Shown here: positions 11,930 to 46,694 of the stretch, piece by piece
Layout: every line of letters begins with the position of its first letter
Position numbering within the stretch: position 1 is the stretch's first letter
Made by a program: the position numbers and the translations under genes
Notes under the pieces: generated by a model
Told to the model about the DNA's origin: nothing
Databases searched by the model: none
The model's input: only the letters and a program-made list of their open reading frames with translations
Source: Escherichia coli
GTDB taxonomy: Bacteria > Pseudomonadota > Gammaproteobacteria > Enterobacterales > Enterobacteriaceae
Length of the DNA: 64,000 nucleotides
Strand: one strand, 5' to 3'
Assembly: GCF_003334385.1 (NCBI RefSeq)
Contig: NZ_QOWN01000007.1

Positions 11930-12829
11930 ATGGCAGAATTTCCCGCCAGCTTACTGATTCTTAATGGCAAAAGTACTGACAATCTACCCTTGCGCGAAGC
12001 AATTATGCTGTTGCGTGAGGAAGGAATGACGATCCATGTGCGGGTCACCTGGGAGAAAGGTGATGCCGCACGATTTGTAGAGGAGGCCCGGAAGTTGGGC
12101 GTCGCAACGGTGATTGCTGGAGGTGGCGATGGCACCATTAATGAAGTTTCTACGGCGTTGATTCAGTGTGAGGGGGATGACATACCCGCGCTGGGAATTT
12201 TACCATTAGGAACCGCCAATGATTTTGCCACCAGCGTAGGGATTCCTGAGGCACTGGATAAGGCGCTGAAACTGGCAATTGCCGGTGACGCCATTGCGAT
12301 AGATATGGCGCAGGTCAACAAACAAACCTGTTTTATTAATATGGCGACAGGCGGATTTGGGACGCGTATTACCACAGAAACGCCGGAAAAATTAAAAGCC
12401 GCGCTGGGTAGCGTCTCTTACATCATTCATGGCTTAATGCGTATGGATACTCTGCAACCGGACCGTTGTGAAATCCGCGGTGAAAACTTTCACTGGCAAG
12501 GTGACGCCCTGGTCATTGGTATTGGTAACGGGCGTCAGGCCGGTGGCGGTCAGCAATTGTGTCCGAACGCGTTAATTAACGATGGCTTGCTGCAACTGCG
12601 CATTTTTACCGGCGATGAAATACTTCCGGCTCTCGTATCAACCTTAAAATCTGACGAAGATAACCCGAATATTATCGAAGGCGCTTCGTCGTGGTTTGAT
12701 ATTCAGGCACCACACGACATCACCTTTAATCTTGATGGCGAACCGTTGAGTGGGCAAAATTTTCATATTGAAATACTTCCGGCAGCGTTGCGTTGCCGTC
12801 TGCCACCAGATTGCCCGCTTTTACGTTAA
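11930..12829 (+). CDS. yegS: Lipid kinase YegS (DAGK-catalytic-domain family, 299 aa)
   Basis: ORF 11930..12829; GGDGT motif ([13 protein letters not shown]) typical of the diacylglycerol-kinase catalytic fold. Confidence 0.85.
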
Positions 12830-12902
12830 ATAAAAGCAAGCGCAGAAGCAGGATTAGCAGACCGGCATCATCCCTGGGATCTTCTGCGCTCACCCTTTTT
12901 TG

Positions 12903-13556
12903 TTACGCAGCTACGGCTAACGCTGCCAGTAATTCATTCATCGATAAATATCTTGCACTCGCCGCATTAAAGCAGGTTTGTTGGGCATCTTCTGATACCA
13001 CAATGGTGTTTATTCCTGCCGCCTGTGCTGCCTGAAAACCACTCACGCTGTCCTCTATAACCAAACAATCTGCAGCAGACAGTTGCAATTCTCGCAGTGC
13101 AGAAAGATAAACTGCCGGATGGGGTTTCCCATGCTTTTCGTCATCAGCACTACAAATCACCGAAAAATAATGCTGAATATTGAGTTTTGTCAGTACAGCA
13201 TCGATCACCTGGTAAGATGAAGAGGTTGCCAGCGCCAGTTGATAGCCACTCCGGCGCAAAAAAAATAACACGTCCTGAACGCCTGGCATCGCTTCGCCCG
13301 TCCCGGCAATCAACGTAGTGATCAGGCGGCGAATCTCACTTTCCAACAGTGCGGGTTCAATGTGTAAATGACAATATTCACACCAGGTTTGGGCAATCTC
13401 ATCCAGCCTTTTACCTTTAGTCAGTCTTATACACTCTTCGTCACTGACACATGCGCCCCACCTTGCCAGTGCTCCCTTTTGTGCCTCACGCCATAACCCT
13501 TCCGAATCAATGATGACGCCGTCCATATCAAAAATGACTGCTTTACAATTAAACAT
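12903..13556 (-). CDS. HAD-superfamily sugar-phosphatase / beta-phosphoglucomutase-like hydrolase (about 217 aa)
   Basis: ORF 12903..13601 (-); HAD motif I FDMDGVIID near the N-terminus; start chosen at ATG 13556 (MFNCKAVIFDMDGV). Confidence 0.6.
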   Translation of the reverse strand: MFNCKAVIFDMDGVIIDSEGLWREAQKGALARWGACVSDEECIRLTKGKRLDEIAQTWCEYCHLHIEPALLESEIRRLITTLIAGTGEAMPGVQDVLFFLRRSGYQLALATSSSYQVIDAVLTKLNIQHYFSVICSADDEKHGKPHPAVYLSALRELQLSAADCLVIEDSVSGFQAAQAAGINTIVVSEDAQQTCFNAASARYLSMNELLAALAVAA

Positions 13557-13600
13557 TGTTCCTCGCAATAAAGCCTGGCACCACACCAGGCTTGTCGTCA

Positions 13601-14878
13601 TCAGGAAATGGTGGCGGTCTTCCCTTCACACACTTGCTGATTTGAGAATCCCGGTTGTTCGACGCGAATAAACGGGCAAATAATAAACGCTATCACATAC
13701 AGGGTGGTGTAAGCGATAACCACACCAATAGTACTGAAATAAGGCAGAAGTACCACGGCGATTGCCGGAGCAAGGAAGTTGGACAACCCGGCTGAAAGGT
13801 TATAAACCGAAATAGCTGCTCCTTTATGTTTCGGTTCCAGTGCCGGGAAAACGGCTGCCATCGGTACGAATGCAGCAACAAAGATCCCCAGTGCCACCGC
13901 AGGTATCAGCGCCATAGCAAAGTTATGACCGAAATGTTGCGGCATGTAGTAGAACGCCAGGCTTGAAAGCGCCATTCCCACGCAACCAAACCAGCGAACA
14001 ACTTTCATCCAGCCCATTTTCTCTGCCAGCACGCCCCAGAATACGTTAGAGAAGATGGTGGTAAAGAAGAAGACTGCCCAGACCTGCAACCACTCAGAGG
14101 TGGTAAAGCCCAGCTCATCAACAAACATCATCGGCATAATTACGGCGAATCCGAATAAAGATAAGGTGTTGATAATGCGAACAATACTGGAAAGCAAAAT
14201 ATTGCGGTTGGTATAAAGCAAAGTCACCGCACGGCCCAGTTCGCTAAACTTCTCTTTTGTGGTTAGGTTTTGCATATGGCGTGGTGTTTCTACTTTGCGC
14301 ATAGAAATTAACGCAACAGCGCCACCAACCCCACAGAAGGCCAGCGCCAGCCATAATGTTCCCATTTCGCCAATAAGCGGAATGGTAAAACTGGGGATGT
14401 AGCTGCCGAATACGCCGATACCAATAGAGTAAACTGCCCAGAACCAGCCCAGAGCAGCACTGGTGCTGTCACTGCGTACGTTATGGACAATCGCCACAAT
14501 AAAGGCGTAGAGGAACAGCGGATAGGCTAGGCCACGAATACCATAAAACAGCAGGATTAACCCATAGTTCGCCTGCCCCAGACCAAAGACCAGAAACAGC
14601 ACGTGAAATACGCACCACAGCACAAAGCCGATAAACATGGTTTTTTGTGGCGTAATAATTTCGGCAACTACGCCGGAAACCCAGGCGGAAAGCGCTGCCG
14701 CCAGGCCATAGAGCGTAAAGGCAAAGGAGGCTTCTGCAGGCGTGAAACCCAGTGCTTTAATGTAATGCGACAGGAATGCCAGTTCAAAACCGTCTCCGGT
14801 CATAAAGATGGCAATGGCAATATATCCCCACACCAGATTTAAGGGTAATCCCAGCCATTGTTTATTTGTTAACGACAT
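13601..14878 (-). CDS. dalT: Pentitol (D-arabinitol) MFS transporter, DalT-like (about 425 aa)
   Basis: ORF 13601..14920 (-); start chosen at ATG 14878 (MSLTNKQWLGL) by alignment with the paralogous rbtT-like ORF; multi-TM. Confidence 0.7.
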   Translation of the reverse strand: MSLTNKQWLGLPLNLVWGYIAIAIFMTGDGFELAFLSHYIKALGFTPAEASFAFTLYGLAAALSAWVSGVVAEIITPQKTMFIGFVLWCVFHVLFLVFGLGQANYGLILLFYGIRGLAYPLFLYAFIVAIVHNVRSDSTSAALGWFWAVYSIGIGVFGSYIPSFTIPLIGEMGTLWLALAFCGVGGAVALISMRKVETPRHMQNLTTKEKFSELGRAVTLLYTNRNILLSSIVRIINTLSLFGFAVIMPMMFVDELGFTTSEWLQVWAVFFFTTIFSNVFWGVLAEKMGWMKVVRWFGCVGMALSSLAFYYMPQHFGHNFAMALIPAVALGIFVAAFVPMAAVFPALEPKHKGAAISVYNLSAGLSNFLAPAIAVVLLPYFSTIGVVIAYTTLYVIAFIICPFIRVEQPGFSNQQVCEGKTATIS

Positions 14879-14946
14879 AGTGACCTCGTTTGTAGGATAC
14901 AAAACGCCGCTCCGGTGCAAACACCGGAGGGCATTTGTGACAGATG

Positions 14947-16410
14947 TTATTGATTGCGATAGTTCAGGTCGTTGTGATACAGCGCAGTAAACTGCTGATA
15001 TCGTTGCATCAGCGCATTATGACGTTCAGGATCGCTGCGCCAGGTTTTGAAGATTTCAGGTTTTTCACACACTGCCGCCAGTGGTTTTCCCGCAGCAAGA
15101 CAGGCCAGACGCGCGGCTCCCAGCGCCCCACCCGTTTCACCGCCTTTATGCGTCACCACTGGCATATCGAGAATATCGGCCAGTAACTGCGCCCAGAATG
15201 GACTTCTCGCCCCCCCACCTACCAGCGAGCATTGCTCAATTGCCGTACCGCTTTCTTGCAGGACTCGCAGCCCATCGGCAATACCAAAGCTGACGCCTTC
15301 CAGCACTGCATATCCCATTAGCGCACGCTGACTGGAGTGTGTCAGCGCCCAGAACAATCCCCGGGCATGAGGATCGTTATGTGGCGTACGTTCACCAGAA
15401 AGATACGGGAGGAACATCGGTGCACTGGCTTTGTCTGCATCAGAAAGTTGGGCAATCTCTTCCAGTAACTCTGTTTCCGTTACCCCCACCAGACGGCAGA
15501 ACCATTGCAGACAACTGGCGGCACTGAGCATTACACTCATCTGGTGCCATAAATTCGGTAGTACGTGACAGAAAGCATGGACTGCTGATTGCGGCGCAGG
15601 ACGATAGGCATCTGTCACTACAAACAACACCCCGGAAGTTCCCAAAGAAATAAACGCATCTCCGGGAGAAACGGCCCCCACACCAATTGCGCTCACGGCG
15701 TTATCGCCACCGCCACCAGCAACTACAACCGAAGATGTCAGCCCCCAACGGCTGGCAACTTCAGGGGAAAGAGTGGCAGAAACGTCACAACCTTCCACCA
15801 GTTCCGGCATATTCGCCCGTGTCAGGCCACATTTTTCCAGCAACGAATCTGACCAGTCGCGTTTTTCCACGTCGAGCCACAACGTGCCAGCAGAATCCGA
15901 CATATCGGAAATCTTTTGGCCGGTCATTTTGAAACGCAAATAGTCTTTCGGCAGTAAAACGGTGGAAATGCGCGCAAAGTGCTGCGGCTCATGGCGCCGT
16001 ACCCATAGCAATTTGGGGGCGGTAAATCCAGGCATCGCCAGGTTTCCCGCTACCTGATGCAACTCTGGTGCGATCTCTTCCAGCTCCGCACACTCCTGCG
16101 CACTGCGGGTGTCGTTCCATAAAATCGCCGGACGAATCGCCTCTCCTTTTTCATCCAACAGGACGGCACCATGCATTTGACCAGAAAGGCCAATGGCTTT
16201 GATCGCCTGCCAGTGGTGACCGCATTTTTCCCGCAGGGTCGACATTAAATATTCCGTCGCTTCCCACCAGGCTTGCGGCGATTGTTCTGACCAGTGTGGA
16301 TGGGGCCGCTGAATGGTCAGCGGCGCACTATGGGTGGCAACAATTTCATTGTTTTCATCAATGACCAGCGCCTTAACTTCCGATGTGCCCAGATCGATAC
16401 CCAGATACAT
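14947..16410 (-). CDS. dalK: FGGY-family sugar kinase, xylulokinase (DalK/XylB-like, 487 aa)
   Basis: ORF 14947..16410 (-); N-terminal MYLGIDLGTSEVKA FGGY motif. Confidence 0.75.
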   Translation of the reverse strand: MYLGIDLGTSEVKALVIDENNEIVATHSAPLTIQRPHPHWSEQSPQAWWEATEYLMSTLREKCGHHWQAIKAIGLSGQMHGAVLLDEKGEAIRPAILWNDTRSAQECAELEEIAPELHQVAGNLAMPGFTAPKLLWVRRHEPQHFARISTVLLPKDYLRFKMTGQKISDMSDSAGTLWLDVEKRDWSDSLLEKCGLTRANMPELVEGCDVSATLSPEVASRWGLTSSVVVAGGGGDNAVSAIGVGAVSPGDAFISLGTSGVLFVVTDAYRPAPQSAVHAFCHVLPNLWHQMSVMLSAASCLQWFCRLVGVTETELLEEIAQLSDADKASAPMFLPYLSGERTPHNDPHARGLFWALTHSSQRALMGYAVLEGVSFGIADGLRVLQESGTAIEQCSLVGGGARSPFWAQLLADILDMPVVTHKGGETGGALGAARLACLAAGKPLAAVCEKPEIFKTWRSDPERHNALMQRYQQFTALYHNDLNYRNQ

Positions 16411-16423
16411 AACCGCCTCCTGG

Positions 16424-17791
16424 TTAGTTAATTAACGCGTAGACGTCAGCGATTTTTTCGCGCAACAACGCGGCAAAATCTTCACGTTCGGTTAAATCGC
16501 CAAACAGCGCTTTATCACTGGCATAAACAGCGACGGGATCGGCAGACTGGAACATTGCATGGACAGCTGGTGCATCAAGGATGCCATCCTGATATTCATA
16601 GGGCAGTTTGCCGTGATGCCATTGCTCCATGAATACGTAAAACAGTGCAGGTAACATGGCGGTGGCATTCGGGCGAACGCCTCGCTGGTAGCACTCTCGC
16701 AGTGTGGGGGCAATCATCGCCGGAATTTTCGAGAAACCATCCGCAGCGACGCGTTGGTTGGTGTCCTGAATATGTGGATTGGTAAAACGCTTGAGTACAA
16801 CATCACGGTAGGTTGGCAAATCGATACCGTTATCGCCCAAGCAAGGAATGACATCTTCCGTCACGTAGCGGTCGGCAATCTGATAGATAAAATCGGTCAT
16901 TGTGCTTTCGTGGATATATTTTTGACCGATTAACGTACCTGCCCAGGCGATGCAACTGTGTGAAGAGTTAAGAATGCGAATCTTCGCCTCTTCATAGGGG
17001 ATTACCGACGCCACCAGTTCGACACCGACCTTCTCCAGTGCCGGACGGACATCACGGAAATTATCTTCCACGACCCACTGGATAAAGGTTTCGCCCATTA
17101 CCGGCGCTTTATCGGCAATACCCGTTTGAGCCTTGATCCGTGCCGGAAGTTCTGCTGCCGGACGAGGCGTAATGCGGTCAACCATGGTATTCGGGCAAGT
17201 GGTATTTGTACTCAGCCAGTCGATGACATCCTGTTTGCCAGTTAGCTGGAGAAACTCAACCAGGCCATCATGGAAACGTTCACCATTATGGCGCACGTTA
17301 TCGCAATTCAGCAGGGTTAGTGGTCCGGCGTTATTTGCCATACGTGCTTCGAGGATACGGGTAATAACACCGTAAATTGTTTTGCATCCCCCTTTAAGAT
17401 CTGCCGCTAAATCAGGATTGTTAACTTCCAGTTTGTGACTGGTATTCAGGTAGTACCCGCCTTCGGTGACGGTGAAAGCAATCACTTTTGTCTTCGGATC
17501 TGCCCCTTCAGCAATCAGCGGTTGTAAATCTGCCTGCCACGGTATCAACTTCTGAATTGAGGTGATCTCTTCATATTCGCTTACCCCTTCCGGGCTGACG
17601 GTTTCCAGCACATAGCGACCTTTCTGTGCACTGAGTGCCTGTACGACATGTTCAGCATCATTACGAATATTGCCCGCAGCAATGCTCCAGCGTTTATCGC
17701 CCATCACCTGCAAACGGTGTAGATACCACGCCTGATGTGCGCGATGAAAAGAACCTAACCCGATGTGCAGCCATGTAAATTGTTCGTTCAT
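16424..17791 (-). CDS. dalD: Mannitol-dehydrogenase-family D-arabinitol 4-dehydrogenase (DalD-like, about 455 aa)
   Basis: ORF 16424..17836 (-); start chosen at ATG 17791 preceded by GGAG; N-terminal [13 protein letters not shown] nucleotide-binding motif. Confidence 0.75.
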
Positions 17792-18003
17792 TGTTTCGTT
17801 CTCCATTGACGTTATGGCTGAACTGTAATCGAACATTTGAGTTAATTAAGAGCGTTAGATCACAAAAGAACAATTGACCAAAAAAATTACAAATGACCAA
17901 ATCAAAGCAATAAACTTGCCTCGCGGTAAAGCTATGGCCAAAATGACGCTAATCAGTTGCGGGATTTTCACGATTCCGCACGCCACTTTTGAGGTAGGGA
18001 AAC

Positions 18004-18945
18004 GTGAACAAAGAAGATGACATCAGGCTCGATCAAAAAGTACGGGCGGCATGGATGTACTACATTGCCGGACTTAATCAGAGTGAAATCGCAAGTCAGT
18101 TAGGTACTTCACGGCCAGTGGTTCAACGCCTGATAGCAGCAGCGAAAGACGAAGGGATTGTGTCGATTGGATTGCATCATCCGGTTGCCAACTGTCTCGA
18201 TTATGCCCAACTGTTAAAGGAAAAGTACCAATTAACCGACTGCAATATTATGCCGGTTTACAGTATTGAAAGTACGCTCGACAGCGTGACATTTGGCTGT
18301 TATCAACTGATGGCGCGTTACTTACAGGGTGACAAACCGACCATCGTTGGTATTGGTTCTGGCTTAACGTTGAAGAAAACCATTAAACGTATCGATTTTG
18401 ATAGTCAGAATACCCGCTGTGTGGCGCTGATTAGCGCCATGAATGAACACGGGCAATGTAACTATTACGACGACGTACCGCTGCTTTTGGCGAGAAAAAT
18501 TCAGGGAAAATATTACCAGTGGCCAGCTCCACGCTATGCTCAGTCCCGCGAAGAGTACCAAATGTGGTCAACCAATCGATTGTTCCGCAACGTCTCTACC
18601 GTAGCGCGTGACTCTGATGTTATTTTCGTGGGTATTGGTGCTTTAGGTCGTCAAAGCCCTATTTTCAAAGATGGCTTTATTGATGAGCAGCAACTGGAAG
18701 AGTTAACAGCACGCGGAGGCGTTGGTGAAATCCTCGGACGCTTTATTGATGCTGAAGGCAATGTTGTGGAAAGCCAGATCAACCAGATGATCACCAGCCA
18801 TGATATCCGCGAAAGCAACTGCCCACGTATCGCAGCTGCCTGTGGTGAGGATAAACGTCCGGCGATCCTCGCAGCATTAAAAGGTGGGTGGATCAACGGT
18901 CTGGTCACCGATGAACACACCGCACGCTGGTTGCTGACACGTTAA
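18004..18945 (+). CDS. dalR: SorC/DeoR-like sugar-binding transcriptional regulator, divergent from the dal operon (DalR-like, 313 aa)
   Basis: ORF with GTG start at 18004 and GAGGTAGGG upstream; N-terminal HTH (LNQSEIASQLGTSRPVVQRL) plus sugar-binding-type C-terminus. Confidence 0.65.
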   Translation: MNKEDDIRLDQKVRAAWMYYIAGLNQSEIASQLGTSRPVVQRLIAAAKDEGIVSIGLHHPVANCLDYAQLLKEKYQLTDCNIMPVYSIESTLDSVTFGCYQLMARYLQGDKPTIVGIGSGLTLKKTIKRIDFDSQNTRCVALISAMNEHGQCNYYDDVPLLLARKIQGKYYQWPAPRYAQSREEYQMWSTNRLFRNVSTVARDSDVIFVGIGALGRQSPIFKDGFIDEQQLEELTARGGVGEILGRFIDAEGNVVESQINQMITSHDIRESNCPRIAAACGEDKRPAILAALKGGWINGLVTDEHTARWLLTR

Positions 18946-18947
18946 TC

Positions 18948-19979
18948 TCAGCTGACAACATTCAGGCTCGGAATGAGTTGTGGCGGTATCTCAATGCGAC
19001 GCAGGGTGGTATCGCCAGAATCCACAATTTCAAACACTTTTTCGAGCATGGCGGGTACATCCTGACGAACCATATCGATATCGTGCCCGAGCAGAGAAAC
19101 AAAAGGATCCCAGTCAAAACACCCCATTGGCGGTTGATTGGCTCCCGTCTGCCCGGTTTGCGCCAGCCAGCGAACCACCCCTTCAAGAGAGATTGTCGAG
19201 TTGACGAATAACCCGTGAAGCGATACTGCAGAGCTTTGGAAGACCTCTTTCAGTAATCCCTCTACGCGAGCAGAAGAGTAGCCGGTAACCAGTTTATGTT
19301 CATCCGGTACGGTTATCCCCAAAGCCTGATGGGCATCGACAAAACCACATAAACGTTCAGCAGTATTGTTATCGCTTATACGTCCACCGACAAAAGTCAA
19401 AGGTGCCAGCTTGCCATAGCGTTTCTGGCTGTTGGCTAAAATTCTTTCCGTCAATAATTTCGCCCCCATATAGTTATCAGAAATGATCGACGGCGCCAGT
19501 GTTCCCGGCAGATCCAGATTCAGTGTCGGTACGCCCGCTTGCTGGCACATTTGGGCTATTTTATCCGGTTGAGTCGCTCCGGTAGCAATGACCCAATCCA
19601 CCTGCCAGGAGAGCATGGCGCGAGCAGCCTCAATTTCCAGTTCTGGCTGTCGCCGCGTACAGGTGATGATTGGCAGTAATCCTCTGGCACGCGCCATCTC
19701 TTCAAATTTTTCGGCAATCGATCCAAAGTATCGGTTGTCATATTTCGGCACAATCATGCCAATAACGTTGGATTTTTTACTGCGCAGTAAACTTGCCTGC
19801 CGATTAATGGCATATCCCTGCTCTTCCGCAATACGGGAGACCTTCTCAGCCAGCTTTGCGCTGATGCGTCGCTTTTTCCAGTTGCCATTCAAAATAGCGC
19901 TTACCGCACTGGCAGAAACGCCGGTTAATTCTGCCAGGTCGTAAATGGTCGTTTTCTTCGTTTTCTCAACGCGTGTCAC
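18948..19979 (-). CDS. rbtR: LacI-family transcriptional regulator, divergent from the ribitol operon (RbtR-like by position, 343 aa)
   Basis: ORF 18948..19979 (-); LacI-type HTH TIYDLAELTGVSASAVSAILNG; symbol assigned by adjacency, not verified. Confidence 0.6.
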   Translation of the reverse strand: MTRVEKTKKTTIYDLAELTGVSASAVSAILNGNWKKRRISAKLAEKVSRIAEEQGYAINRQASLLRSKKSNVIGMIVPKYDNRYFGSIAEKFEEMARARGLLPIITCTRRQPELEIEAARAMLSWQVDWVIATGATQPDKIAQMCQQAGVPTLNLDLPGTLAPSIISDNYMGAKLLTERILANSQKRYGKLAPLTFVGGRISDNNTAERLCGFVDAHQALGITVPDEHKLVTGYSSARVEGLLKEVFQSSAVSLHGLFVNSTISLEGVVRWLAQTGQTGANQPPMGCFDWDPFVSLLGHDIDMVRQDVPAMLEKVFEIVDSGDTTLRRIEIPPQLIPSLNVVS

Positions 19980-20137
19980 AAATTTGCCTCTTCATTTTGA
20001 ATGTCTCTTGCTGAGAATTTAAGCAAGTGCTAGATCTGCTTCATCGATTGAGCAGTTTGCTTCACACGGCAGCTAAATTCCCGTTCAGTGCGTGCAAGCA
20101 AACAGAGACTATAAATTCGCCCTGGTAAAAGGATTAT

Positions 20138-20890
20138 ATGATGAATCACTCTGTGCCCTCTATGAATACTCCCCTTAATGGCAAAGTTGCAGCTATCACT
20201 GGCGCTGCGTCAGGTATTGGCCTGCAATGTGCAAAAACGCTGCTCGATGCAGGAGCAAAGGTAGTATTGATTGACCGGGAAGGCGACAAACTGCACAAGA
20301 TTGTCGCTGAGTTAGGCGAAAACGCGTACGCGCTGCAACTCGATCTCTTCAATAATCAGCAAGTCGATAACATGCTGGCGGACATTATCGAACTGGCGGG
20401 TGGGCTGGATATTTTTCATGCCAATGCAGGCGCTTATATTGGCGGCCCAGTGGCTGAAGGTGATCCAGATGTCTGGGATCGTGTGTTAAATCTGAATATA
20501 AATGCGGCGTTTCGCTGTGTCCGTGCAGTCCTGCCGCATATGATTGCGCAGAGGTCGGGCGATATAATTTTTACCAGTTCCATCGCGGGCGTCGTTCCGG
20601 TTATCTGGGAACCGATCTACACCGCGTCCAAATTTGCCGTTCAGGCATTCGTACACACTACCCGCCGCCAGGTTTCTCAATATGGCGTGCGTGTGGGTGC
20701 GGTGCTGCCAGGACCAGTAGTCACTGCCCTGCTTGATGACTGGCCAAAAGCCAAAATGGAAGAAGCCCTGGCAAATGGTAGCCTGATGCAACCGATTGAA
20801 GTGGCGGAATCAGTATTGTTTATGGTGACCCGCTCGAAAAATGTCACCGTGCGAGATTTAGTGATCCTGCCTGGCAGTGTCGATCTGTAA
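20138..20890 (+). CDS. rbtD: Short-chain dehydrogenase, ribitol 2-dehydrogenase (RbtD-like, 250 aa)
   Basis: SDR motifs TGAASGIG and YTASKFAV; close resemblance to Klebsiella ribitol dehydrogenase as I recall it. Confidence 0.8.
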
Positions 20891-20900
20891 GGGCGCAATC

Positions 20901-22505
20901 ATGACAATAACCAAAACCGTTATTGGTGTTGATGTGGGATCAGGCAGTGTCCGCGCCGGGATTTTTGATCTCAACGGATCTCTGCTATCCCATGCCACAG
21001 AAAAAATCACGACTACGCGGCGCAGCGGAAGCCGCGTGGAACAGTCCAGCCAGGAGATCTGGCAGGCGGTCTGTTCATGTATTCGTAATGCGCTCACTCT
21101 GGCAGACGTTTGTGCACAAAGTGTGGCAGGCATCGGTTTTGATGCCACCTGTTCTCTGGTGGTACTGGATAAAAACGGTGATCCATTGCCTGTCAGCCCG
21201 GAAGGAGATGCAAAGCAAAATATCATTGTGTGGATGGATCACCGCGCCACCGAACAAGCAGAGCGAATCAATGCCACTCACCATCCGGTGCTGAACTACG
21301 TCGGTGGTAAAATTTCGCCTGAAATGGAAACACCGAAAATTCTCTGGCTGAAAGAAAATATGCCAGAGATCTACGAACGTGCCGGACAATTTTTCGATCT
21401 GGCCGATTTTCTGACCTGGCGGGCTACCGGTGATTTAGCGCGTTCAGTATGCACTGTTACCTGTAAATGGACGTGGCTGGCACATGAAAATCGCTGGGAT
21501 CCAGATTATTTCCGCACCATTGGCCTTGCAGAGTTAGCGGATGAAGATTTTATTCGCATTGGTCATCATATTGTTTCTCCCGGAACACCTTGTGGAAATG
21601 GTTTAACAGCACAAGCCGCGGCAGAGATGGGATTACTCCCCGGCACACCTGTCGCTGTAGGGTTAATTGATGCTCACGCTGGTGGCATCGGTACGGTTGG
21701 CGTAGAAGGTGGAGCGCTGAACAATCTCGCGTATGTTTTCGGCACTTCTTCATGCACCATGGCATCTACCACTTCTCCCTCGTTTGTACCGGGTGTCTGG
21801 GGGCCGTATTACAGTGCGATGGTTCCAGGTCTGTGGTTAGTTGAAGGCGGGCAAAGTGCTGCGGGAGCAGCTATTGACCAGCTACTTGATTTCCATCCGG
21901 CTGTTGAAGAAGCTCGCGAAATGGCACAACGTGTGAATCAGCCCCTCCCCGTCTGGCTTGCTGATCGAATCCTCGAAAAAACGGCGCAACCATCAGATGC
22001 TGTCGCCCTGGCGAAAGGGCTACACGTGGTGCCGGAATTTCTCGGAAATCGCGCCCCCTTCGCAGATCCTCATGCCAGAGCGGTAATTTGTGGCCTGGGT
22101 ATGGAGCGAGATCTGGATAATTTACTCGCCTTGTATATCGCTGGATTATGCGGAATTGGTTATGGTCTGCGCCAAATTCTCGACGCTCAAACAGCGCAGG
22201 GAGTAGTGAGTAAAAATATCGTTATTAGCGGCGGTGCCGGGCAGCATCCACTGGTACGACAAATTCTGGCAGATACCTGCGGTATTCCGGTCATTACCAC
22301 GCAATGCTGCGAACCGGTTTTATTAGGCTCGGCCATTCTTGGTGCTGTCGCCGGAAATATTGCACCTTCTGTTGGCGAAGCGATGCAACAATTCACCCAT
22401 GTGGATAAATATTATTATCCGCAAGAACGCTATCAATCTCTTCATCATCGTCGATATGAGGCCTATAAGCAGTTGCAGCATACTGCAAAATTACTCAGAG
22501 ACTAA
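20901..22505 (+). CDS. rbtK: FGGY-family D-ribulokinase (RbtK-like, about 534 aa)
   Basis: ORF 20877..22505; ATG at 20901 just after the rbtD stop; IGVDVGSGSVRAG FGGY motif. Confidence 0.75.
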   Translation: MTITKTVIGVDVGSGSVRAGIFDLNGSLLSHATEKITTTRRSGSRVEQSSQEIWQAVCSCIRNALTLADVCAQSVAGIGFDATCSLVVLDKNGDPLPVSPEGDAKQNIIVWMDHRATEQAERINATHHPVLNYVGGKISPEMETPKILWLKENMPEIYERAGQFFDLADFLTWRATGDLARSVCTVTCKWTWLAHENRWDPDYFRTIGLAELADEDFIRIGHHIVSPGTPCGNGLTAQAAAEMGLLPGTPVAVGLIDAHAGGIGTVGVEGGALNNLAYVFGTSSCTMASTTSPSFVPGVWGPYYSAMVPGLWLVEGGQSAAGAAIDQLLDFHPAVEEAREMAQRVNQPLPVWLADRILEKTAQPSDAVALAKGLHVVPEFLGNRAPFADPHARAVICGLGMERDLDNLLALYIAGLCGIGYGLRQILDAQTAQGVVSKNIVISGGAGQHPLVRQILADTCGIPVITTQCCEPVLLGSAILGAVAGNIAPSVGEAMQQFTHVDKYYYPQERYQSLHHRRYEAYKQLQHTAKLLRD

Positions 22506-22606
22506 TTAACCAGCCGCCTGACGCTGTTTTCAGGCAATCACTAATAACGACTCACTCCGGTAATATCCCGGAGTGCATTCATCTGCACCCTAAAAACGAG
22601 GTTTAT

Positions 22607-23881
22607 ATGTCCAGAAATAATAAACAGTGGTTGGGTTTGCCACTGCATCTGATATGGGGATATATCGCCATCGCAGTATTTATGACTGGTGATGGTTTCG
22701 AACTCGCATTCTTATCGCACTATATTAAATCGTTAGGCTTCACACCTGCGGAAGCCTCTTTTGCCTTTACGCTCTACGGCCTGGCGGCTGCCCTTTCCGC
22801 CTGGGTTTCTGGGGTAGTAGCGGAAATCATCACGCCGCAAAAAACCATGCTGATTGGTTTTGTCCTATGGTGCGTATTCCATGTTCTGTTTCTGGTCTTT
22901 GGATTAGGACAGGCAAACTATGGGTTAATCCTGCTGTTTTACGGGATTCGTGGTTTAGCGTATCCGCTATTTCTCTACTCATTTATCGTCGTTATTATTC
23001 ATAACGTGCGTAGCGAAAATTCCAGTTCTGCTCTGGGTTGGTACTGGGCGGTATATTCAGTAGGGATCGGTGTTGCTGGCAGTTATATTCCCAGTTTTAC
23101 GATACCGATTATGGGTGAAATGGGAACCTTATGGCTGGCACTGGCGTTCTGCTTTGCTGGCGGTGTCATTGCCATGATCTCCTTGCGTCATGTTAAAACG
23201 CCTGGACATATGCATAATTTAACTCCCCGTGAGAAGTTTGCAGAATTAAGTCGGGCAGTAACTTTACTTTATACCAACCGCAATATTTTTCTCTCCAGTA
23301 TTGTGCGCATTATAAATACCTTATCGTTATTCGGTTTTGCGGTCATTATGCCAATGATGTTTGTGGATGAACTGGGATTCACCACCTCTGAATGGTTGCA
23401 GGTCTGGGCGGCATTTTTCTTTACCACTATTTTCTCTAATATTTTTTGGGGGATTGTGGCAGAAAAAATGGGCTGGATGCGTGTTATTCGCTGGTTTGGT
23501 TGCCTCGGGATGGCAGCATCAAGTTTAGCGTTTTACTACATGCCGCAATACTTTGGTCACAACTACTGGATGGCAATGATTCCGGCGATTGCTCTGGGAA
23601 CTTTTGTTGCTGCATTTGTGCCGATGGCCGCTGTCTTCCCGGCACTGGAACCAAAACACAAAGGTGCTGCAATCTCGGTTTACAACCTCTCTGCGGGTAT
23701 GTCTAACTTCCTGGCTCCGGCAATTGCCGTGGTGTTATTACCGTGGTTTAGCACTATCGGTGTGGTCATTGCCTATACAGCATTGTATCTATTGGCCTTT
23801 GTCCTTTGCGCATTCATTCGCGTTGAGCAGCCAGGATTCAGTTCTGCGCCAGTGACTGAGAAGGCATTGAATATCTCCTGA
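22607..23881 (+). CDS. rbtT: Pentitol (ribitol) MFS transporter, RbtT-like (424 aa); paralog of the dalT-like gene
   Basis: ORF 22607..23881; long stretches of amino-acid identity with the 13601..14878 product. Confidence 0.7.
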   Translation: MSRNNKQWLGLPLHLIWGYIAIAVFMTGDGFELAFLSHYIKSLGFTPAEASFAFTLYGLAAALSAWVSGVVAEIITPQKTMLIGFVLWCVFHVLFLVFGLGQANYGLILLFYGIRGLAYPLFLYSFIVVIIHNVRSENSSSALGWYWAVYSVGIGVAGSYIPSFTIPIMGEMGTLWLALAFCFAGGVIAMISLRHVKTPGHMHNLTPREKFAELSRAVTLLYTNRNIFLSSIVRIINTLSLFGFAVIMPMMFVDELGFTTSEWLQVWAAFFFTTIFSNIFWGIVAEKMGWMRVIRWFGCLGMAASSLAFYYMPQYFGHNYWMAMIPAIALGTFVAAFVPMAAVFPALEPKHKGAAISVYNLSAGMSNFLAPAIAVVLLPWFSTIGVVIAYTALYLLAFVLCAFIRVEQPGFSSAPVTEKALNIS

Positions 23882-23903
23882 AAAACGAAACGCATCAGGC
23901 ACT

Positions 23904-23930
23904 CATCCTCTCCCTCATGGGAGAGGATGA
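23904..23930. terminator. Hairpin between the convergent rbtT-like gene and fbaB (candidate bidirectional terminator)
   Basis: tcatcctctccc / gggagaggatga stem around a 3-nt loop, between stop codons at 23881 and 23938. Confidence 0.5.
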
Positions 23931-23937
23931 TTTCACA

Positions 23938-24990
23938 TCAGGCAATAGTGACTTTGTTATCGAGATAAACGTCCTGCACGGCGTTAATCAGTTTCACGCC
24001 GTCAGCCATCGATTTCTTAAATGCTTTCCGCCCCAGAATCAGCCCCATTCCGCCTGCGCGTTTGTTGATAACCGCAGTACGCACTGCATCGCTGAGGTCA
24101 GTTTCACCGCCCGCAGCACCGCCGGAGTTTATCAACCCAGCCCGACCCATATAGCAGTTAGCTAACTGATAACGCACCAGATCAATCGGGTTTTCGCTGG
24201 TCAATTTGCTGTAAACACGATCGTCGGTGTAACCGTAATTAATTGCTTTATAGCCGCCGTTATTTTCCGCCATTTTTTGTTTGACGATATCTGCACCGAT
24301 GGTTGCCGCCAGATGGTTTGCCTGACCGGTCAGGTCGGCGGAAACATGGTAATCAACGCCATCTTTCTTAAAGGCGGAGTTACGCAAATAGGCCCACAGC
24401 ACTGTCACCATACCCAGCTCGTGCGCACGTTCAAAAGCCGCAGAAATTTCTTCAATCTGGCGACGTGACTCTTCCGAGCCAAAATAGATAGTCGCACCAA
24501 CCGCAACCGCGCCCATGTTGAACGCCTGCTCCACGCTGGCATACAGCGTTTGATCGTAGGTATTCGGGTAACTTAGCGTCTCGTTGTGATTAAGTTTGAC
24601 GAGGAATGGAATGCGATGCGCATAACGCCGCGATACCGACGCCAGCACGCCGTAAGTTGACGCCACACAGTTACAGCCCGCTTCGATCGCCAGTTCAACA
24701 ATGTTTTTCGGGTCAAAGTAGAGCGGGTTAGCAGCAAATGAAGCTCCGGCAGAGTGCTCAACGCCCTGGTCAACCGGCAGAATAGAAAGATATCCTGTGC
24801 CAGCCAGACGCCCGGTGTTGTACAACGTCTGCATATTACGTAACACCGCTGGCGGGCGATTATTGTCAATCATTACGCGGTCTACGTAGTCATGTCCGGG
24901 GAGATAAAGCTGGTCAGAAGGAATTGTCATACAACGGTGCTGTAAAAGGTTGTCGGCGTCTTTGCCAAGCAACTGCGCAATATCTGTCAT
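23938..24990 (-). CDS. fbaB: Class I fructose-bisphosphate aldolase FbaB (350 aa)
   Basis: ORF 23938..25062 (-); start chosen at ATG 24990 ([16 protein letters not shown]). Confidence 0.85.
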
Positions 24991-25246
24991 TACTATGCTC
25001 CCGTAAATTCCGATTGGATATCGGCTATGGATTGTCCTGGCCCGCCTTTTGCGGGCAATCATAATCCTGGTCGTTACGGGCGAGTTTTTCCATCTTTTGG
25101 ATGTTTTTTCAGCGTTTTCTGTTGGCTCGATTCATCAGAAAAAATGTTAGCGCGGTCAAGTTTTCACCGCAAAGGTATTTAAAAGGTATTATTAAGTGGT
25201 ATTGTCATCGCGTACCTTACATTACCTGTCATGAAGGAATTAAAAG

Positions 25247-26524
25247 ATGAAAACAACAGCAAAGCTGTCGTTCATGATGTTTGTTGAATGGTTTATCTGG
25301 GGCGCGTGGTTTGTGCCATTGTGGTTGTGGTTAAGTAAAAGCGGTTTTAGTGCCGGAGAAATTGGCTGGTCGTATGCCTGTACCGCCATTGCGGCGATCC
25401 TGTCGCCAATTCTGGTTGGCTCCATCACTGACCGCTTTTTCTCGGCGCAAAAAGTGCTGGCGGTATTGATGTTCGCAGGCGCGCTGCTGATGTATTTCGC
25501 TGCGCAACAGACCACTTTTGCCGGGTTCTTTCCGTTACTGCTGGCTTACTCTCTAACCTATATGCCGACCATTGCGCTGACTAACAGCATCGCTTTTGCC
25601 AACGTGCCGGATGTGGAGCGTGATTTCCCGCGCATTCGTGTGATGGGCACTATCGGCTGGATTGCCTCCGGTCTGGCATGTGGTTTCTTGCCGCAAATAC
25701 TGGGGTATGCCGATATCTCACCGACTAACATCCCGCTGCTGATTACCGCCGGAAGTTCTGCTCTGCTCGGTGTGTTTGCGTTTTTCCTGCCCGACACGCC
25801 ACCAAAAAGCACCGGCAAAATGGATATTAAAGTCATGCTCGGCCTGGATGCGCTGATCCTGCTGCGCGATAAAAACTTCCTCGTCTTTTTCTTCTGTTCA
25901 TTCCTGTTTGCGATGCCACTGGCGTTCTATTACATCTTTGCCAACGGTTATCTGACCGAAGTCGGCATGAAAAATGCCACCGGCTGGATGACGCTCGGCC
26001 AGTTCTCTGAAATATTCTTTATGCTGGCATTACCGTTTTTCACTAAACGCTTTGGTATCAAAAAGGTATTATTGCTTGGTCTGGTCACCGCTGCGATCCG
26101 CTATGGCTTCTTTATTTACGGTAGTGCGGATGAATATTTCACCTACGCGTTACTGTTCCTCGGTATTTTGCTTCACGGCGTAAGTTACGATTTTTACTAC
26201 GTTACCGCTTACATCTATGTCGATAAAAAAGCCCCCGTGCATATGCGTACCGCCGCGCAGGGGCTGATCACGCTCTGCTGCCAGGGCTTCGGCAGTTTGC
26301 TCGGCTATCGTCTTGGCGGTGTGATGATGGAAAAGATGTTCGCTTATCAGGAACCGGTAAACGGACTGACTTTCAACTGGTCCGGGATGTGGACTTTTGG
26401 CGCGGTGATGATTGCCATTATCGCCGTGCTGTTCATGATTTTTTTCCGCGAATCCGACAACGAAATTACGGCTATCAAGGTCGATGATCGCGATATTGCG
26501 TTGACACAAGGGGAAGTTAAATGA
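25247..26524 (+). CDS. yegT: MFS nucleoside-transporter-family protein YegT (425 aa)
   Basis: ORF 25247..26524, multi-TM; first gene of the yegTUV cluster. Confidence 0.85.
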   Translation: MKTTAKLSFMMFVEWFIWGAWFVPLWLWLSKSGFSAGEIGWSYACTAIAAILSPILVGSITDRFFSAQKVLAVLMFAGALLMYFAAQQTTFAGFFPLLLAYSLTYMPTIALTNSIAFANVPDVERDFPRIRVMGTIGWIASGLACGFLPQILGYADISPTNIPLLITAGSSALLGVFAFFLPDTPPKSTGKMDIKVMLGLDALILLRDKNFLVFFFCSFLFAMPLAFYYIFANGYLTEVGMKNATGWMTLGQFSEIFFMLALPFFTKRFGIKKVLLLGLVTAAIRYGFFIYGSADEYFTYALLFLGILLHGVSYDFYYVTAYIYVDKKAPVHMRTAAQGLITLCCQGFGSLLGYRLGGVMMEKMFAYQEPVNGLTFNWSGMWTFGAVMIAIIAVLFMIFFRESDNEITAIKVDDRDIALTQGEVK

Positions 26525-45800: not shown

Positions 45801-46694
45801 CCACGGCAGTTCACCGTCAGCTTTGATGAAACCTTAAAACCGTTTGTGCGTGATGTTTCCGGCAGCCGCCTGAAAGACCTGCCCAAACCGAACAAAAGCG
45901 ATGATGAAACGCGGGCGAACGATGCGGTTAACCGCTACAAATTGCTGAAAAAAGATGCGCGTACCATCGCCGCCCAGCAGGTAGCAAGGCTGGAATCCGC
46001 CATGTGCCTGCGCCGCCGCTGGTCGCTGGAAAACTTCCAGCTCTTCCTGGTTGAGCATCCGCTGGTTCGTCACTTAACCCGCCGTCTGATTTGGGGCGTT
46101 TATAGCGCCGAAAACCAGCTACTGGCTTGCTTTCGCGTAGCAGAAGATAACAGCTCCAGCACCGCTGACGATGATCTTTTCACCCTGCCGGAAGGCGATA
46201 TCTCTATCGGCACTCCTCACGTTCTGGAAATATCACCAACGGATGCTGCCGCCTTTGGTCAGCTTTTTGCCGACTACGAACTGCTACCACCGTTCCGCCA
46301 GCTCGACCGTAACAGCTACGCCCTGACAGAAGCCGAGCGCAATGCCAGTGAACTGACCCGCTGGGCAGGCAGAAAATGCCCGAGTGGTCGGGTCATGGGG
46401 CTGGCGAATAAAGGCTGGATAAAGGGCGAACCACAGGATGGAGGCTGGATCGGATGGATGATCAAACCTTTGGGTCGCTGGTCGTTAATCATGGAAATCG
46501 ATGAAGGCTTTGCGGTAGGCATGTCGCCAGCCGAACTCAGCGCTGAGCAGCTCTTAAGCAAGCTGTGGCTATGGGAAGGCAAAGCAGAAAGATATGGCTG
46601 GGGGAGTAATTCAACACAGGAAGCGCAGTTCTCCGTAATCGATGCCATCACCGCCAGCGAGCTAATTAACGATATTGAAGCCCTGTTTGAATAA
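42900..46694 (+). pseudogene. molR: MolR (YehH) WGR-domain / YehI-like large protein, one frame of about 1264 codons interrupted by one in-frame TGA (43722-43724)
   Basis: ORFs 42900..43724 and 43836..46694 are in the same frame; the sequence between them translates without further stops (RLRKHLSLTEESLWQ...); N-terminus has a WGR-like motif (HISWGKVGTKGQ); strongly paralogous to yehI. Confidence 0.7.

Follow-up and report, generated by a model that had tools for sequence, protein, structure and literature searches.

Which genes stand between yegS and fbaB in Escherichia coli strains whose chromosome does not carry the galactitol (gat) operon at that position, and how did they come to be there? 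The question is raised by a 64,000-nucleotide stretch of an E. coli genome (contig NZ_QOWN01000007.1; hereafter, the window), in which a first-pass annotation had placed two pentitol catabolic modules, in mirror orientation, at the K-12 gat position. Our analysis indicates that this block is very probably the classical E. coli C-type pentitol locus, rtl/atl (equivalent to rbt/dal), which would consist of two independently regulated operons and would have been acquired by recombination from a donor resembling Escherichia fergusonii.

Two pentitol operons at the gat position

The layout was established from the listing of open reading frames (ORFs) together with the RefSeq annotation of an identical E. 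coli chromosome, that of strain WP7-S17-ESBL-04, to which the window is 100% identical over the query (positions 11900-25100). The order along this chromosome segment is mdtB, baeSR, yegPQ, yegRS, the pentitol block, fbaB, yegTUVWX, thiMD, rcn, yeh and metG. Nine genes, all intact, lie between the stop codon of yegS (11930-12829, plus strand), which forms the left flank, and the stop codon at 23938 of fbaB (23938-24990, minus strand), which forms the right flank. Coding sequence makes up 93% of this interval, and the widest gap is 212 bp. Homology to an E. coli strain that carries only gat ends at 12829 and returns at 23937, and the same interval in that strain holds gatR-gatDCBAZY; no gat homologue is present anywhere within the 64 kb window. 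The placement of two pentitol modules between yegS and fbaB, at the position of gat, is borne out by layout and products alike, and comparison of the flanks with gat-only E. coli agrees with the limits first given for the block, 12830-23935, to within 2 nt.

The dal side lies to the left on the minus strand. It begins with dalD (16424-17791), which encodes D-arabinitol 4-dehydrogenase of the mannitol dehydrogenase family, followed in the same direction of transcription by dalK/xylB (14947-16410; D-xylulokinase) and dalT (13601-14878; D-arabinitol transporter of the major facilitator superfamily, MFS), with gaps of 13 and 68 nt. The last gene on this side (12903-13556) encodes a haloacid dehalogenase (HAD) hydrolase, a HAD-IA phosphatase similar to HxpB and YniC. 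Divergent from dalD is dalR (18004-18945, plus strand), for a SorC-family regulator, and convergent with dalR is rbtR (18948-19979, minus strand), for a LacI-family regulator. The rbt side follows on the plus strand with rbtD (20141-20890; probable ribitol 2-dehydrogenase, a short-chain dehydrogenase/reductase, SDR), rbtK (20901-22505; D-ribulokinase) and rbtT (22607-23881; ribitol MFS transporter and paralogue of dalT). The mirror order T-K-D-R | R-D-K-T of the first-pass annotation stands, but its left arm has a fourth gene that had not been listed, the phosphatase gene between dalT and yegS.

Most of the products could be assigned with specific models. DalD scores 755.9 bits on the D-arabinitol 4-dehydrogenase equivalog NF043014 (cut-off 600), DalK 636 bits on the xylulokinase equivalog TIGR01312 (XylB; cut-off 380) and RbtK 919.8 bits on the FGGY pentulose kinase model TIGR01315 (cut-off 408.7), while DalT and RbtT reach 514 and 514.7 bits on TIGR00897 (RbtT/DalT/CsbX; cut-off 375). 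The UniRef or source names of the exact proteins include ‘ribitol 2-dehydrogenase’, ‘D-ribulokinase’ and, for DalT, ‘D-arabitol membrane transporter’, and RbtT is 98.8% identical to the UniRef ‘Ribitol transporter’ of E. fergusonii ATCC 35469. RbtD matches generic SDR models only; it contains the motifs TGAASGIG and YTASK and was named from its source name and from synteny and 88% protein identity with Klebsiella pneumoniae. The regulators were placed at the level of family. Among NCBIfam models, DalR matches SorC-type DeoR and LsrR best, with scores under the cut-offs; its E. fergusonii orthologue matches Pfam Sugar-bind (PF04198), and it is 82% identical to K. pneumoniae DalR. RbtR has LacI-family NCBIfam matches, all under cut-off, and its orthologue matches Pfam LacI and Peripla_BP. 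A SorC-type regulator divergent from dalD and a LacI-type regulator divergent from a plus-strand rbtD-rbtK-rbtT set, both proposed earlier, are thus found, and the DalD equivalog, the kinase and transporter models and the Klebsiella orthology match the products to pentitol rather than hexitol enzymes.

In the pathways established for these enzyme families, D-arabinitol taken up by DalT is oxidized by DalD to D-xylulose, which DalK converts to D-xylulose-5-phosphate, and ribitol taken up by RbtT is oxidized by RbtD to D-ribulose, which RbtK converts to D-ribulose-5-phosphate. Both pentulose phosphates feed the pentose phosphate pathway.

The closest known system is the rtl-atl locus of E. coli C. 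The block shares 99.9% DNA identity with it over all 11091 bases (CP020543) and likewise lies between yegS and fbaB, not far from metG, with gat absent from the window; nothing of substance differs. E. coli C is reported to use ribitol and D-arabitol and is called, in PMC6805351, the only pentitol-using E. coli, a statement to be set against our count of the window allele in 309 complete genomes (below). The locus is also collinear with the dal/rbt genes of K. pneumoniae, characterised by Heuel 1998 (as cited in PMC12307932), which have the same order and orientation, rbtT-rbtK-rbtD-rbtR | dalR-dalD-dalK-dalT. Protein identities to the K. pneumoniae locus compared here are 85% (DalD), 84% (DalK), 86% (DalT), 82% (DalR), 88% (RbtD), 76% (RbtR) and 73% (RbtK), with 61% for the HAD protein. 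DNA identity to Klebsiella, however, is just 69-78%. The Klebsiella-type and E. coli C-type arrangement that had been suggested from the gene order is therefore supported by 73-88% protein identity to the former and 99.9% DNA identity to the latter.

The mirror arrangement is centred on the 2-nt gap between the convergent dalR and rbtR genes. DalT and RbtT have 85% protein identity, and their genes 77% DNA identity, which confirms them as paralogues; the two genes form an inverted repeat of 1256 nt (13646-14901 and 22584-23839). They are the sole close pair among the mirrored genes: the kinases DalK and RbtK are 24% identical, the two dehydrogenases belong to unrelated families and so do the regulators. 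The symmetry is one of gene order only, not a duplication. Recent gene conversion between dalT and rbtT in the window allele was considered and rejected, with identity ranging from 62 to 87% per 100 nt and a longest identical run of 26 nt. Link and Reiner reportedly saw inverted repeats of 1.4 kb around the E. coli C genes in 1982, which we take to be, most simply, the two transporter genes. Neighbour-joining places the rbt-side transporters of Klebsiella and Raoultella (L009, L014 and L044) beside the dal-side transporters of their own genera, whereas the window rbtT groups with the rbt-side transporter of Leclercia NCTC13032, away from the window dalT. The gene rbtT may be of multiple origin, or gene conversion may have homogenised it in Klebsiella and Raoultella.

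The K-12-type gat operon fills the identical interval, bounded by the stop codons of yegS and fbaB, and is likewise a polyol catabolic cassette. Its genes are unrelated, with phosphotransferase system (PTS) uptake, galactitol-1-phosphate dehydrogenase, tagatose-bisphosphate aldolase and a DeoR-type repressor, and no sequence similarity to the block. We surveyed 5426 complete E. coli genomes, counting carriers of the window allele at at least 99% identity, and found three haplotypes: gat only, the window allele, and a second pentitol allele together with gat. The window allele is present in 309 genomes, including E. coli C, enterotoxigenic E. coli H10407 and UMNK88 (all 99.9% identical to the block), and gat DNA in 5112; the two counts sum to 5421 of 5426, consistent with near-complete exclusivity. 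The reading of alternative cassettes at one site is the published one, rtl/atl and gat having been described as a case of ‘genotypic exclusion’ or ‘chromosomal alternative’ (Link & Reiner 1983; Woodward & Charles 1983, as cited in PMC2806823, PMC6805351 and PMC5094792). Among 54 full-length matches of the window type (type 1), a spread sample of the 309 carriers, nearly all are at 99.9-100% identity, while their flanks differ by as much as 3.5%. In a few carriers the allele is disrupted by IS1 or IS2. Two partial matches (H89 and H90) were considered as new haplotypes and rejected, being IS1-mediated truncations or rearrangements of the window allele.

The second allele, found in 27 genomes, is about 83% identical to the window allele, with 78-85% DNA identity per gene and a synonymous divergence (dS) of 0.9-1.5. 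It shares the left junction after yegS, a homologous hairpin between yegS and the HAD gene, and the order HAD-dalTKD-dalR-rbtR-rbtDK. It differs by the absence of rbtT and by adjoining gat: its rbtK is followed by a terminator hairpin of its own and then directly by gatR-gatDCBAZY. The allele is intact in 13 genomes, mainly O55:H7 (CB9615, DEC5), and has a decayed rbt half in 14 genomes of the O127:H6 E2348/69 type. It is the minority with ‘both clusters’ reported for O55:H7 CB9615 in PMC2806823, which describes it as adjacent to gat. In the E2348/69 lineage (L004:16096-18391), rbtR is truncated and frameshifted, rbtD is partial and rbtK has a frameshift and a stop, while HAD-dalTKD-dalR is intact beside an intact gat operon.

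Ends and source of the block

The same nine genes lie between yegS and fbaB in contigs of E. fergusonii, with identical architecture and spacing, and the RbtT of these contigs is 99.5% identical to that of ATCC 35469. Gene by gene, DNA identity of the window to E. fergusonii is 96.3-98.0% in the block, compared with 94.7% in fbaB, 94.2% in yegT and 85% in yegS, and dS is 0.075-0.18 in the block versus 0.17-0.26 for yegQ, fbaB, yegT, yegU, yegV and yegW. The ends were located with diagnostic sites, defined as fixed differences between three E. coli without the block and three E. fergusonii. Of 126 such sites in yegS, the first 119 are coli-like in the window with one exception (118 of 119), and the last 7 are fergusonii-like; these 7 fall in the final 34 nt of the gene (12796-12829, plus strand); the same 7 window-specific substitutions appear in the flank alignment. 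At the other end, in the 3' part of fbaB (23938-24034, minus strand), the 44 diagnostic sites read FFFCCCCFFFFFF over 23950-24034, and the remaining 31 of 31, from 24049, are coli-like. Compared with a gat strain, the window has 10 substitutions in the first 100 nt of fbaB, one at 24055 and none from there to 25100. The E. fergusonii block shares the bases at both ends, and its own flanks are of the E. fergusonii type.

The imported tract most likely spans about 12796-24034 and appears to have been brought in by homologous recombination with DNA of an E. fergusonii-like donor. The crossovers would lie in the 3' ends of yegS and fbaB, and the import would replace everything between the two genes. 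The junctions as first given hold, except that the apparently foreign tract reaches slightly into yegS and fbaB. Because the allele takes up the whole interval, a carrier chromosome has no gat operon there, which is the structural basis of the ‘genotypic exclusion’. In diagnostic schemes, E. fergusonii scores positive for adonitol and D-arabitol (PMC5454151). A DalD search of genome contigs missed E. fergusonii despite its near-identical gene, and non-recovery in that search is therefore not evidence of absence. Citrobacter koseri was considered as the donor and rejected; with a DalD that is 94% identical it had seemed the nearest relative in that search, but its block genes are only 74-81% identical in DNA. 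Within yegS itself, positions 11930-12689 show 85% DNA identity between E. coli and E. fergusonii and a dS of 0.84-0.93, versus about 0.25 for neighbouring genes, while positions 12690-12795 contain zero fixed differences between the two species. The pattern suggests that yegS contains another, older recombination boundary.

Several points weigh against the proposed origin and function of the block. The divergence from the sampled E. fergusonii that remains in the block is ~2.7%, and four diagnostic sites in fbaB are coli-like although they lie inside the tract; the actual donor may for these reasons be an unsampled relative. The direction of transfer, into E. coli, we infer from the uniformity of the allele and its rarity in E. 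coli. The specificities of RbtD, DalR and RbtR, for which there is no equivalog model, are attributed through orthology and synteny. A consensus promoter and terminator scan returned 7 sigma-70-like sites, versus 13.8 expected by chance, with none in either of the two control regions.

The alternative that fares best holds that the window allele is the vertical, ancestral Escherichia state, later displaced by gat in most lineages, with no import between species. The order yegS-HAD-dal-rbt-fbaB is indeed conserved across the Enterobacteriaceae. The yegS-fbaB slot holds dal/rbt or subsets of it in Klebsiella, Raoultella, Enterobacter, Leclercia, Superficieibacter and Citrobacter koseri, with the general order yegS-HAD-dalT-dalK-dalD-dalR-rbtR-rbtD-rbtK-(rbtT)-fbaB. 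The loci of K. pneumoniae, Raoultella, one Leclercia and the window include rbtT, whereas those of K. oxytoca, K. spallanzanii, Enterobacter spp. and Superficieibacter lack it; in E. asburiae and K. indica the locus is limited to the dal half. The occurrence of the block in the same slot across genera marks it as an old resident of the family's slot and not as a mobile island. The second E. coli allele, with ~1.8% divergence between its O55:H7 and E2348/69 sublineages, also has the look of an old resident. The window allele, however, hardly varies among the matches listed for the 309 genomes that carry it. Its dS to E. fergusonii amounts to roughly half the value for the flanking genes, and bases of the fergusonii type extend into the ends of yegS and fbaB. 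Moreover, with a dS above 1 between them the two E. coli alleles cannot both be vertical. We consider purely vertical descent of the window allele improbable.

A transposon-like mobile element inserted at the gat site, bounded by inverted repeats of ~1.3 kb, is still less probable. This idea was reportedly raised when the E. coli C inverted repeats were first seen. The 1256-nt inverted repeat near both ends and the patchy distribution of the block in E. coli would fit it, but the repeats are intact paralogous transporter genes that are only 77% identical, and an interval that is 93% coding, with no gap above 212 bp, has no room for a transposase or integrase. The block lacks direct repeats at its ends, which fall inside homologous flanking genes, and at least six other genera have the same genes in the same slot. 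No plasmid copy or second chromosomal site was found, leaving out a second place in PSS-08-2. The composite transposon or genomic island was likewise rejected as a class for the block, all ORFs being accounted for, flanking direct repeats being absent and the repeat consisting of two genes. Import of the whole interval by homologous recombination from an E. fergusonii-like donor remains the reading that we favour.

The phosphatase gene and the intergenic regions

The top NCBIfam match of the HAD protein is the hexitol phosphatase HxpB (NF008087) at 171.5 bits, under the cut-off of 191, and its closest solved relative is E. coli YniC, a 2-deoxyglucose-6-phosphate phosphatase (PDB 1te2). From these matches it is assigned as a HAD-IA sugar-phosphate phosphatase of the HxpB subfamily, not the HxpB equivalog. 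The catalytic motifs DMDG, ATSS, K and EDS are intact, and a GAGGAA ribosome-binding site lies upstream of the ATG. That the genes of the block serve other polyols (hexitols, xylitol or L-arabinitol) rather than ribitol and D-arabinitol, as this hexitol phosphatase match and the generic SDR matches of RbtD could suggest, is scarcely credible beside a DalD score far above the equivalog cut-off, full collinearity at 73-88% identity with dal/rbt of K. pneumoniae, the species studied by Heuel 1998, and 99.9% identity to E. coli C, which is described as a ribitol and D-arabitol user (PMC6805351).

The HAD gene lies 47-96 nt beyond the dal-side transporter gene, or 181 nt beyond it in C. koseri. It stands after dalT in all loci of Enterobacteriaceae, Rouxiella and Vibrionaceae that are long enough to show it, with the exception of one E. 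asburiae locus (L010); Neisseria-type dal loci are without it. Its protein is 81% identical between the two E. coli alleles, compared with ~93% for its neighbours, indicating faster evolution, and its ratio of nonsynonymous to synonymous divergence (dN/dS) of 0.09-0.2 indicates purifying selection. To our knowledge this gene, conserved after dalT from E. coli to Vibrio, is uncharacterised, and we know of no mention of it in the published description of Klebsiella dalDKT.

On the most economical reading, the HAD protein would act as a housekeeping phosphatase on mis-phosphorylated polyols or on surplus pentulose phosphate. More tentatively, and less likely than not, it might be a dedicated ‘safety valve’ for pentitol phosphates and pentulose phosphates, clearing compounds such as D-arabinitol phosphate or xylitol-5-phosphate formed by pentulokinases or by a PTS such as Gat. 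For gat-positive cells, D-arabitol is reported to be toxic (Reiner 1977, as cited in PMC5094792). If the safety-valve role were true, it would tie the phosphatase to this toxicity and hence to the rare coexistence of gat and atl.

The promoter scan being uninformative, the control regions were approached through phylogenetic footprints. The divergent dalD/dalR region (17792-18003) was aligned across 14 taxa, including Vibrio and Aliivibrio. It contains the conserved motifs GATCACAAAAGAACAA (17858-17873) and ATTACAAATGACC (17886-17898), and the core GATCACAAA is near-invariant, even in Vibrio and Aliivibrio, amid DNA that has otherwise diverged. These motifs are a candidate operator for DalR. 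In the divergent rbtR/rbtD region (19980-20140), aligned across 13 taxa, the pseudo-palindrome GCTTCATCGATTGAGC (20038-20053) is identical in 11 of the 13 within an otherwise diverged spacer; Cedecea and Buttiauxella differ by 2 nt. The site is shared by the window and K. pneumoniae, and a second, inverted copy is present in Klebsiella, where the rbtR-rbtD spacer is longer, and in Enterobacter sp. 10-1 and Raoultella. It is a candidate RbtR operator, typical of the LacI family. Each operon would be under its own repressor, the SorC-type DalR or the LacI-type RbtR, acting from a divergent promoter region, and each repressor probably binds the conserved motif in its own spacer.

The outer spacers both contain hairpins. 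Between yegS and the HAD gene (12830-12902), an inverted repeat at ~12839-12892 (-21.6 kcal/mol) has an A-run and a T-run at its sides and is likely a bidirectional terminator; a homologue of this spacer is present in the O55:H7 and O127:H6 allele and absent from gat-only strains. Between rbtT and fbaB (23882-23937), there is a strong hairpin at ~23903-23930 (-25.9 kcal/mol), and this spacer has no homology to the gatY-fbaB spacer of gat strains. Both hairpins look like terminators common to convergent neighbour genes. Within the dal side, the spacer between dalT and the HAD gene (13557-13600, minus strand) contains a GC-rich stem-loop (13567-13594) with a weak U tract. A stem-loop is present there in 10 of the 10 taxa compared, without conservation of its sequence, and with a full T-run in Vibrio furnissii. 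An Rfam scan of 10500-26000 returned nothing within the block; one sub-threshold snoRNA match was taken as chance.

Neighbouring loci and meaning of the polymorphism

The DNA to the left of the block is variable. The small RNA CyaR/RyeE (100.7 bits) lies just after yegQ (10952-11037, plus strand). The E. fergusonii alignment breaks exactly at the CyaR 3' end and resumes ~100 nt before yegS; from this break (11040-11833) the low-GC yegR segment (39-42% GC) is E. coli-specific. One E. fergusonii strain (L065:1-1598) has a P2-like set of cox, repressor and integrase genes there, 190 nt upstream of yegS, which suggests a phage integration hotspot directly beside the pentitol block. In E. coli O55:H7 (L003:7978-8573), a ParD/ParE pair, with parD frameshifted, is inserted between yegP and yegQ, and E. 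fergusonii has a ParE gene upstream of yegQ (L063 and L064:1-68); the strain matching the window exactly over 11900-25100 has no such pair in its annotation. To the right, a large DUF4132 gene next to yehI (~42900-46694, a position obtained by coordinate transfer, not from the window sequence) is a pseudogene with an internal stop in the annotation of NZ_AP022177.1, the chromosome of the strain that matches the window exactly over the query.

Two dal loci carry labels from outside the groups described above. L022, labelled Chryseobacterium sp. 18061, has an enterobacterial-type dal locus with 84% DalD identity, and its gene order and identities are like those of L024 (Citrobacter sp. 18056, of the same CACS accession series) and L023 (Pluralibacter). 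L031, labelled as a Lacinutrix metagenome-assembled genome, has a Vibrio-type locus with 72% DalD identity. Contamination or mis-binning is a more likely explanation for both than a real occurrence in Bacteroidota.

The polymorphism itself, its mapping near metG, the exclusion of gat and the Klebsiella-type mirror order are already known from literature of 1975-1998, as cited in PMC6805351, PMC2806823, PMC5094792 and PMC12307932. The present additions are incremental and settle no open question. They comprise the previously unlisted HAD gene, the division of E. coli into three haplotypes, the mapping of the recombination ends together with their apparently E. fergusonii-like source, and a candidate operator for each regulator. 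As a case of alternative metabolic cassettes at one site the locus belongs in the textbooks, and it is the basis of adonitol-positive phenotypes in E. coli. The polymorphism can be seen as allelic replacement of a slot that is conserved across the Enterobacteriaceae, rather than as insertion of a mobile element. The resemblance of the common pentitol allele of E. coli to an introgression from E. fergusonii bears on the adonitol and D-arabitol schemes that are used to separate the two species.

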